From the NCBI GenBank assembly GCA_007693505.1, contig REDL01000052.1:51748-75747 (forward strand): 24,000 bases of DNA, given 5' to 3'. Under the pieces are notes generated by a model. That model saw only the letters and a program-made list of their open reading frames with translations. It did not search any database and had not been told where the DNA came from. This document shows, piece after piece, positions 15,901 to 17,192 of the stretch (the stretch's first letter is position 1; every line of letters starts with the position of its first letter). A program made the position numbers and the translations under genes. The DNA is from Desulfovibrionales bacterium. Its GTDB lineage: Bacteria; Desulfobacterota; Desulfovibrionia; Desulfovibrionales; Desulfonatronaceae.

Positions 15901-16905
15901 GTGGACGGGTTCATCACTACCCCGTCGGGACGCGTTCCCCGCGTCAAGGCCCATCCAACGCTTTGGGACCGCCTTGGCGACTGCCGGGCCCGGCTGGGAC
16001 TGGATCGAAACAACTATACCGTCAATCCGGGGCTCTACGCCGTGGGCGACCCATCCCCCGACGCCCCGGTGGTGGTCACGGCCAACTACAAGCTGACCTT
16101 CGACACGGTCCGCTTCGCCCTGCGCGGACGAAACGCCTGGATTTTGGTGACGGACACCCGAGGCATCAACGTCTGGTGCGCCGGAGGCAAGGGTTCCTTC
16201 AGCGCCGAAGCCGTTGCCCTCCAGGTGCGCAAAGCCGGCCTGGACCGCGTCGTGTCCCATCGTCGGCTGATTCTCCCTCAACTGTCCGCCAACGGCGTCC
16301 GACTCCGGGACGTGCGCAAGGCCACGGGTTTCGAGGCCGTCCTGGGGCCGATCCGGGCCGAGGATCTGTCGCGCTTCCTGGACCAGGGTCCCGACGACGC
16401 CATGCGGGAAGTCACATTTACCTTCATGGAACGGCTTGCCGTGGTGCCCGTGGAACTGGTCCTGGGCTGGAAGATGGTTCTCGCGGTCCTGGCCGCGGCG
16501 GCGGTATTGAGCCTCATCGGAACAGAGCTTGCCCTTGGGGCTGTTTTCCAGCGCTGGATCCTGGCCGCCACGGCCACCCTTTTCGGCCTGTTGAGCGGAG
16601 CCATCGCCTTTCCATTGCTGCTGCCCCGACTGCCCACCCGCCTCTTTTCCCTGGCCGGAGCCGGTTTAGCGGCAATCCCGGCCCTGGCCCTGCCGCTGCT
16701 CTTCCCCTCCCCGGCCTGGCCCGCGCTGGTGGGGGTGGGGTTGTGGACCATGACCGTTTCCGCCTGGACTGCCCTGAACTTCACCGGATCCACGCCCTAC
16801 ACATCGCCCTCTGGCGTGGAGAAGGAAATGCGGGCGGCCATCCCCACCCTCGCCGGTTCCACGGTGCTGTCCGTGATCTGCTTCATCTGGGGAAACCTTC
16901 AGTAA
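15901..16905 (+). CDS. hgcA: HgcA, corrinoid-binding membrane protein required for mercury methylation
   Basis: 334 aa from GTG 15901. It carries the diagnostic cap-helix motif NVWCAGGKG (aa 90-98; Cys codon 16177-16179), preceded by VVVTANYKLTFD. The C-terminal half is hydrophobic, with several predicted TM helices (LVLGWKMVLAVLAAAAVLSLIG, ILAATATLFGLLSGAIAFPLLL, LAGAGLAAIPALALPLLF, ALVGVGLWTMTVSAW, IPTLAGSTVLSVICFIW). The start is uncertain: the frame is open upstream with no ATG/GTG/TTG back to the TGA at 15835. Confidence 0.9.
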   Translation: MDGFITTPSGRVPRVKAHPTLWDRLGDCRARLGLDRNNYTVNPGLYAVGDPSPDAPVVVTANYKLTFDTVRFALRGRNAWILVTDTRGINVWCAGGKGSFSAEAVALQVRKAGLDRVVSHRRLILPQLSANGVRLRDVRKATGFEAVLGPIRAEDLSRFLDQGPDDAMREVTFTFMERLAVVPVELVLGWKMVLAVLAAAAVLSLIGTELALGAVFQRWILAATATLFGLLSGAIAFPLLLPRLPTRLFSLAGAGLAAIPALALPLLFPSPAWPALVGVGLWTMTVSAWTALNFTGSTPYTSPSGVEKEMRAAIPTLAGSTVLSVICFIWGNLQ

Positions 16906-16916
16906 GGACGCATGCC

Positions 16917-17192
16917 GTGAAGCGATTCCACCATCTTCAAAACGTGGCCACCTTGGCATATGACCGGGACAAATGCGTGGGCTGCGGCCTCTGCATCGCG
17001 GTCTGCCCCCACCGCGTCTTCGTGCTGAAGAAAGACAAGGCCGAAATCCAGGACCGAGAGGCCTGCATGGAATGCGGGGCCTGCGCCCTGAACTGTCCCA
17101 CCGAGGCCGTGGCCGTGACGCCCGGCGTGGGTTGCGCGTCCTACATCATCCAGACATGGCTTCCGAAAGGCACCACGCCCCAATGCTGCTGA
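16917..17192 (+). CDS. hgcB: HgcB, 2x[4Fe-4S] ferredoxin partner of HgcA
   Basis: This is the C-terminal 91 codons of the spurious long ORF 15834..17192. GTG 16917 is preceded by AAGGA, which overlaps the hgcA stop. The protein is MKRFHHLQNVATLAYDRDKCVGCGLCIAVCPHRVFVLKKDKAEIQDREACMECGACALNCPTEAVAVTPGVGCASYIIQTWLPKGTTPQCC. It has two CX2CX2CX3CP motifs, an extra Cys at aa 73, and a C-terminal vicinal Cys-Cys (17184-17189). Confidence 0.9.
   Translation: MKRFHHLQNVATLAYDRDKCVGCGLCIAVCPHRVFVLKKDKAEIQDREACMECGACALNCPTEAVAVTPGVGCASYIIQTWLPKGTTPQCC

Follow-up and report, generated by a model that had tools for sequence, protein, structure and literature searches.

The 24,000-nucleotide stretch of Desulfovibrionales DNA analysed here (the window) contains, at positions 15901-17192, two adjacent genes whose sequences support their assignment as genuine hgcA and hgcB, the known mercury-methylation pair. 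The locus very probably represents the HgcAB of a Desulfonatronum-like sulfate reducer in which hgcA is read through an in-frame UGA codon to yield a selenocysteine (Sec)-type protein of 392 aa. The host is an uncultured, Desulfonatronum-like, haloalkaliphilic sulfate reducer of soda lakes. Most HgcA proteins were recognized as selenoproteins with a CU motif in a previously unrecognised N-terminal extension (Haft & Gwadz 2022, bioRxiv 10.1101/2022.07.06.499078). The selenoprotein idea has since been cited by a 2024 PNAS paper on HgcAB (PMC11588087), and HgcA (NF040863) is given with the motif CU in a 2026 review (PMC13188914). Because the selenocysteine feature was published in 2022, the hgcAB finding is right but adds no novelty: the family, the Sec form and the deposited sequence were all on record. 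The window HgcA matches TVR00033.1, a protein from a Desulfovibrionales metagenome-assembled genome (MAG) filed as 'hypothetical protein', at 100% identity over 330 aa, and the window HgcB is identical to TVQ99956.1 in GenBank, likewise from a deposited Desulfovibrionales MAG. The small additions made here are that CUGP alone is invariant across the loci examined and that the database models of the window clade remain truncated. The locus is of interest mainly for the replacement of an arsR gene by a toxin-antitoxin cassette and as a reminder on truncated HgcA models.

The assignment as hgcA-hgcB, already proposed in a preliminary description made from the sequence, is borne out by curated protein family models. 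HgcA scores 366.3 bits against the NCBIfam equivalog NF040863 (cut-off 275; E=1.3e-109), covering profile positions 1-322 of 325, and HgcB scores 124.6 bits against NF040864 (cut-off 99; E=1e-36). HgcA falls below the cut-off of the model for fused HgcAB-like paralogues (196.9 bits, cut-off 285) and far under that for the gamma subunit of the corrinoid iron-sulfur protein (CFeSP; 77.6 bits, cut-off 306). A database search returned 2627 homologues, the nearest being a Logan-assembly protein (93%) and the proteins of Desulfonatronum zhilinae (90%) and Desulfonatronum sp. SC1 (87%). The two genes are separate and lie 11 nt apart, and hgcB adjoins hgcA in 92 of 98 loci. HgcB shares a 90% cluster with the RefSeq 'mercury methylation ferredoxin HgcB' of D. 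lacustre and D. thioautotrophicum.

The cap-helix motif NVWCAGGKG was correctly described, with its Cys codon TGC at 16177-16179, and the W, C, A, G and K of this motif are invariant in an alignment of 14 HgcA sequences. The Cys lies within a CFeSP-like corrinoid-binding domain (16015-16386, plus strand), which is supported by matches in Pfam, the PDB and Foldseek. In the numbering of the short, 334-aa model, the Pfam domain CdhD matches residues 39-149 with 58 bits as the sole Pfam domain seen in HgcA, and the CFeSP gamma structure 2h9a in the PDB matches residues 39-162 (E=2e-14). The hydrophobic multi-helix C-terminal domain noted earlier is also evident as five long helices at residues 175-333, placed by AlphaFold at 175-203, 212-243, 249-267, 273-297 and 303-333 (mean predicted local distance difference test score 80). 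Hydropathy peaks of the C-terminal half agree with these helices, and the resulting transmembrane domain spans 16423-16902 on the plus strand. The top Foldseek match is the published integrative model of HgcAB from strain ND132 (9a0b_A, 48% identity), followed by CFeSP structures (probability 1.0). A search of the PDB by sequence with HgcA returned CFeSP relatives only, and the integrative HgcAB model surfaced through Foldseek only.

The second gene, hgcB (16917-17192, plus strand; GTG start, TGA stop), encodes a 91-aa ferredoxin with two [4Fe-4S] clusters; the preliminary description had already noted a 91-aa ferredoxin 11 nt downstream of hgcA. Pfam recognizes Fer4 domains, and the two CX2CX2CX3CP motifs read CVGCGLCIAVCP and CMECGACALNCP. 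Cysteines occupy positions 20, 23, 26, 30, 50, 53, 56, 60, 73, 90 and 91, among them Cys73 in GVGCA (codon TGC), which is the conserved Cys expected some 12 residues past the second motif, and the C-terminal pair Cys90-Cys91.

The 5' end of hgcA departs from the preliminary description. The open reading frame (ORF) at 15901-16905 is present on the plus strand with a GTG start and a TAA stop, but neither the GTG start nor the 334-aa product was upheld. That start corresponds to the historical truncated model and misses the N-terminal Cys-Sec extension. Translation of hgcA most likely begins at ATG 15727 and decodes UGA 15835 as selenocysteine, giving 392 aa, which falls inside the range of 363-400 aa for corrected HgcA lengths (Haft & Gwadz 2022). 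The proposed full-length coding sequence spans 15727-16905 on the plus strand and would place Cys36-Sec37 in the N-terminal extension; the cap-helix Cys93 of the short model becomes Cys151 in this numbering. The extension (15727-15900, plus strand) is proline-rich, with 17 Pro in 58 residues, and carries an APCUGP motif. Ahead of GTG 15901, this frame runs ...PGSAAAPC-TGA-GPPPAPGAGVDDLPGYRIEPY-V and opens at ATG 15727 (MKPLQPFPTAPP...). It is conserved and coding over the 174 nt 5' of GTG 15901, with the TGA at 15835-15837 (plus strand), the candidate codon for Sec37, as the sole interruption. The peptide predicted across Cys36-Sec37 is ...SAAAPC-U-GPPPAPGAGVDDLPGYR.

Comparison with homologues suggests that this TGA occupies a coding position. 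Long HgcA homologues of the Cys type show PCCGP...PGY...FV at the same place, so the window TGA aligns with the second Cys of their CC pair. Among 86 loci (85 fetched plus the window), 29 have TGA as this codon and 40 have TGC or TGT, and three further TGA-type loci were recovered from metagenomes. The ATG and the start peptide M(K/E)PLQPFP(M/T)AP are kept in 10 of 10 members of the window clade, and the peptide following the UGA is likewise conserved. Differences within the extension are biased to third codon positions (15/13/34 and 18/13/32 across the three positions, against relatives at 65-68% core identity). GTG 15901 is the first start-type codon following the TGA, but it is not a conserved start, because 16 of 24 Sec-type homologues encode the matching Val by GTC, GTT or GTA. 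Elsewhere in the window TGA terminates translation normally, as it does for hgcB, which argues for local recoding rather than an alternative genetic code. A literature search found no paper on Sec use in Desulfonatronum. Cys36 is the sole cysteine of the window tail. A set of Desulfomicrobium-like loci (L006, L007, L086-L088 and L097) carries two extra Cys upstream of the Cys-Sec pair (PCxxxC, e.g. APSGPCSGPCAP) and has ACUGP rather than PCUGP.

A hairpin resembling a selenocysteine insertion sequence (SECIS) follows the UGA at 15848-15868 on the plus strand. It has a 9-bp stem (CGGCUCCCG / CGGGAGUCG) and a GUG loop, its first nucleotide is the 11th after the UGA, and it folds at -14.5 kcal/mol on its own. 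In a ten-sequence alignment of the window clade, 92.6% of pair cells are paired, as opposed to 37-58% with the partners slid by 1-3 columns. Three hairpin pairs change on both sides, all at synonymous sites, and two of these three double changes are of the U-A to C-G kind (GCU/GGA to GCC/GGG; CCC/GCG to CCU/GCA). Across lineages, a hairpin at this distance from the UGA is specific to Sec-type loci. Their mean contiguous stem is 6.4 bp with the loop at +20 +/- 1 nt, whereas Cys-type loci have scattered stems with a mean of 3.8 bp (p=9e-8). The folding energy of the segment from +8 to +37 likewise differs, with -11.7 kcal/mol in Sec-type and -4.4 kcal/mol in Cys-type loci (p=5e-9). The spacing and the G/U-containing apical loop recall the minimal SECIS of E. 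coli fdhF, a likeness that we take as a lead only.

The region upstream of hgcA sets the window apart from its relatives. An ArsR-family gene lies directly upstream of hgcA in all 10 other members of the clade and in 39 of 98 loci overall, and it is absent in the window. Two relatives illustrate the ancestral-like arrangement: L003, whose HgcA is 92% identical and falls in a 90% cluster including D. thioautotrophicum proteins, and L005, which carries the D. zhilinae HgcA. Both have a 92-aa ArsR-family gene between a NifU-like gene and hgcA, with a stop codon that overlaps or abuts the hgcA ATG. Homology of the window to these relatives stops just after the start of the NifU-like gene (~14544) and returns at ~15700. 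Approximately 430 bp of the relatives, comprising the promoter region and ~250 of the 279 bp of arsR, are swapped for ~1.16 kb in the window. The replacement consists of a Phd/YefM antitoxin gene (14865-15137, plus strand; Pfam PhdYeFM_antitox, 59 bits), a ParE toxin gene (15140-15466, plus strand; Pfam ParE_toxin, 62 bits) and 233 bp without a recognisable gene. The Phd/ParE cassette is absent from both relatives, and the same junction is seen in two independent assemblies (L001 and L002). The antitoxin gene shows 66-72% DNA similarity to alphaproteobacterial plasmid Phd genes (Rhizobium, Novosphingobium) in a plasmid search, and the cassette flanks contain no convincing direct or inverted repeats.

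A relic of the arsR 3' end is retained at 15700-15730 on the plus strand, where the stop TGA (15728-15730) overlaps the hgcA start as ATGA. A 71-aa ORF (15515-15730) ends at this old arsR stop and has just its last ~10 codons in common with ArsR (NLITELEAS vs NLIAKLEAS). The ORF has no Pfam family even at E<=10 and no helix-turn-helix, and it could be a chimeric remnant left behind by the replacement. A decayed arsR within 15467-15730 was considered and rejected, with tblastn of the relatives' ArsR giving E=0.11 over 50 residues. Given this tblastn result and the lack of a helix-turn-helix in Pfam, arsR was taken as absent save for the last ~10 codons. The only plus-strand promoter-like site lies at 14816-14845, before phd, in a scan for an E. 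coli-type consensus that is weak evidence either way. Between parE and hgcA, the scan found no sigma-70-like promoter by this consensus and no plus-strand terminator-like site. The promoter-like site before phd and the lack of a terminator-like site between parE and hgcA make read-through expression plausible, and hgcAB may be transcribed by read-through from the cassette, as far as the sequence indicates. In ND132, hgcAB shares a transcript with arsR, whose product (the regulator ArsR2) controls the pair (Gionfriddo et al. 2022, bioRxiv 10.1101/2022.10.17.512643). With arsR and the promoter region replaced, the window hgcAB is probably freed from ArsR control. Codon changes in hgcA on the window lineage comprise 18 synonymous and 5 non-synonymous ones, compared with 18 and 9 in an arsR-bearing relative. 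The hgcAB genes look to be still under purifying selection, with no apparent relaxation of constraint in hgcA on the window lineage.

Several observations count against an expressed, Sec-type hgcAB at this locus. The window holds none of selA, selB, selC (tRNA-Sec) or selD, and an Rfam scan of the whole window at the gathering threshold gave no match and thus neither a riboswitch nor an annotated SECIS. Folding of the 66-nt segment that follows the UGA is no more stable than that of shuffled sequences (z=0.12). Stability alone is uninformative because the sequence is GC-rich, and the hairpin therefore draws its support from position and covariation. The covariation set is small and its members are related (9 distinct sequences), a kinship that inflates the statistics from shuffling. 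Fitting one register to every Sec-type locus was tried and rejected, with 66.9% of cells paired and slid controls nearly equal. Subclades of the Sec type have registers shifted by 1 nt or a different stem, and the covariation is limited to the window clade because one register fits the wider Sec-type set poorly. In E. coli lysate, ND132 HgcA shows activity in its short form, which lacks the extension (PMC11588087); this implies that catalysis can proceed without the Cys-Sec tail. Loss of the arsR promoter region makes expression of hgcAB uncertain. The open-access literature found reports no methylation by any Desulfonatronum and none for this organism. The lysate activity also favours the short model itself, in which UGA 15835 is a real stop, the upstream 36 codons form a separate small ORF or an untranslated leader, and a 334-aa HgcA starts at GTG 15901. 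The GTG is a legal start codon that all Desulfonatronum-type relatives share as GTG. Models in GenBank and from gene callers are short (330-334 aa), and short and long HgcA could coexist if Sec insertion is inefficient. Yet we consider a true stop at UGA 15835 unlikely. The 21 codons between UGA and GTG show protein-level conservation and carry on the PGY...V motif found inside Cys-type long homologues, and the UGA aligns with Cys in 40 loci. In addition, two thirds of the Sec-type homologues (16 of 24) have a non-start Val codon at the GTG position, a conserved hairpin with compensatory changes lies past the UGA, and the start peptide at ATG 15727 is kept at 65% core identity. Readings that question the HgcA identity fare worse still. 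A non-methylating paralogue, either of the CFeSP/CdhD type or HgcAB-like, would fit the detection of only a CdhD domain by Pfam and the GenBank labels of the closest proteins ('CO dehydrogenase/acetyl-CoA synthase delta subunit' or 'hypothetical'). We regard such a paralogue as extremely improbable, since HgcA scores above its equivalog cut-off and below those of the fusion paralogue and CFeSP gamma, and it has the cap-helix Cys that CFeSP lacks. The five-helix membrane domain, the separate adjacent HgcB with Cys73 and CC tail, and the HgcA-specific CUGP extension point in the same direction.

A genuine Sec-type hgcAB might nevertheless have been silenced by the cassette, leaving orphaned genes in early decay and an organism that does not methylate mercury. 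The entire intergenic region between the NifU-like gene and arsR is gone together with ~250 of the 279 bp of arsR. The co-transcription of arsR with hgcAB and its regulatory role in ND132, as well as the lack of a sigma-70-like promoter (E. coli-type consensus) between parE and hgcA, also fit silencing. Such decay is improbable in our assessment, because neither ORF is broken, the Sec codon, the hairpin and the catalytic residues are all preserved, and synonymous changes prevail in hgcA on the window lineage (18 to 5), as they do in the arsR-bearing relative. Furthermore, read-through from the cassette is possible, given that parE and hgcA have no plus-strand terminator-like site between them. 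ArsR-family proteins are typically repressors, and loss of ArsR would more likely de-repress the operon than silence it. We tentatively suggest, as a possibility that is less likely than not, that the window carries a natural knock-out of the hgcAB regulator. Here, the cassette would have replaced arsR and its promoter, with hgcAB transcribed by read-through and freed from an arsenic-/SAH (S-adenosylhomocysteine)-responsive ArsR. If true, this would be a rewired control of mercury methylation without a described precedent.

The retained Sec-type hgcAB is predicted to function as characterized HgcAB systems do. The cap-helix Cys (Cys93 in ND132 HgcA) is the cobalt ligand and essential, HgcB Cys73 is essential as well, and at least one C-terminal Cys of HgcB is needed (PMC7305189). 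This source also confirms the numbering of HgcA Cys93 and HgcB Cys73 for ND132, which the preliminary description had given. In purified ND132 HgcAB, S-adenosylmethionine methylates the corrinoid (PMC11588087). All catalytic residues and domains of HgcAB are present in the window proteins. HgcA would act as a membrane-anchored corrinoid protein in which the cap-helix Cys ligates cobalt ('Cys-on'). The corrinoid cofactor would be methylated and the methyl group then handed to Hg(II), with the two-cluster ferredoxin HgcB re-reducing the cobalt. A role in handling Hg(II) and CH3Hg+ has been proposed for HgcB Cys73 and the Cys-Cys at the C-terminus (PMC7305189). The hairpin 10 nt past the UGA would direct selenocysteine insertion, and the flexible proline-rich tail of HgcA would present the vicinal Cys36-Sec37. 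Based on Haft & Gwadz 2022 and by analogy with MerA and HgcB, which have vicinal Cys pairs, the tail is probably an arm for very high-affinity capture of Hg(II) or for its hand-off to the active site or the HgcB cysteines. Methylation of Hg(II) by this organism is a prediction from the gene content of the locus.

The surroundings of hgcAB suggest a chromosomal location. Neighbours in the window comprise riboflavin genes with nusB, glyA, a fab/plsX/rpmF cluster, rpmB, gltX and the NifU-like gene, and the locus was taken as chromosomal because the riboflavin and nusB neighbours are an ordinary housekeeping context. The riboflavin genes lie at 413-4607 on the minus strand, where a ribD-like deaminase/reductase, a lumazine-binding riboflavin synthase and a fused DHBP (3,4-dihydroxy-2-butanone 4-phosphate) synthase/GTP cyclohydrolase II are found together with nusB. 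Located 3' of hgcB are an ATP-grasp gene, membrane proteins, TspO and three HSP20 genes. The ATP-grasp gene (17278-18213; DcsG_N/GSH-S_ATP/RimK-like) was considered as a partner of hgcAB and rejected as part of the system, because it follows hgcB in Desulfonatronum loci only. Three tandem HSP20-family small heat-shock genes occupy 20809-22240 on the minus strand and adjoin a TspO/MBR gene (20213-20701), in a region with a G+C content of only 49-51%. Between 15500 and 18200, across hgcA, hgcB and the ATP-grasp gene, G+C reaches 63-65%, compared with ~50-58% in the flanks, and this stretch is compatible with an acquired island. The hgcB frame is open for ~1.08 kb upstream of the hgcB start (15834-17192), spanning all of hgcA in another frame, and ORF listing consequently gives a spurious ORF of 452 aa. 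The long open frame is most likely a by-product of the high G+C content.

If expressed, the locus marks an uncultured Desulfonatronum-like sulfate reducer of soda lakes as a potential methylmercury producer. The common HgcA models of 330-346 aa, including those in GenBank and RefSeq for the window clade, are truncated at the selenocysteine codon. Residue numbering, coverage by hidden Markov models and heterologous constructs derived from truncated models omit the Cys-Sec tail, which may bind Hg(II). The arsR-bearing relatives and the arsR-less window locus provide a natural comparison for the weight of ArsR control on hgcAB expression.

Among the closest known systems are HgcA and HgcB of ND132 (Pseudodesulfovibrio mercurii / Desulfovibrio desulfuricans; DND132_1056/1057), and HgcAB was reported by Parks et al. 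2013 to be required for Hg(II) methylation in ND132 and Geobacter sulfurreducens. The window shares with ND132 the two-gene layout, the Cys of the cap-helix motif NVWCA(A/G)GK and the five-helix membrane domain. The HgcB proteins also agree in having two CX2CX2CX3CP motifs, Cys73 and a C-terminal Cys-Cys, but the CC pair lies at 94/95 in ND132 and at 90/91 in the 91-aa window HgcB. Both HgcA extensions carry Cys-Sec, with ...APCUGPRPDPRAGVFEKPGYAVEPFV in ND132 and ...APCUGPPPAPGAGVDDLPGYRIEPYV in the window. The post-Sec peptide of the window and the hairpin it encodes constitute a distinct GPPPAPGAGVDDL subtype, with the hairpin register shifted by 1 nt. The window further differs from ND132 in belonging to the haloalkaliphilic Desulfonatronum lineage and in having no arsR upstream of hgcA. 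The arsR-hgcA-hgcB operon (Gionfriddo et al. 2022) is matched by all ten closest relatives, each with a 92-aa ArsR-family gene whose stop in several of them touches or overlaps the hgcA ATG, whereas in the window arsR is cut to about its last 10 codons, with Phd/ParE and ~230 bp in its place. The window HgcA resembles the described Sec-type proteins in its upstream extension spanning a UGA, in the CU within PCUGP and in its length (Haft & Gwadz 2022). The same study found PCUGP to be perfectly conserved in 20 cases, including ND132 and G. sulfurreducens, whereas only CUGP is invariant across the loci here, the residue before the Cys also being A, V, S or G in other lineages. HgcB was reported as a selenoprotein at position 73 in ~6% of cases (Haft & Gwadz 2022), unlike the window HgcB, which has Cys73. 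The large subunit of CFeSP (AcsC/CdhE) of the Wood-Ljungdahl pathway shares with HgcA a homologous, Rossmann-like corrinoid-binding domain. CFeSP has no membrane domain, cap-helix Cys, Cys-Sec tail or dedicated HgcB.

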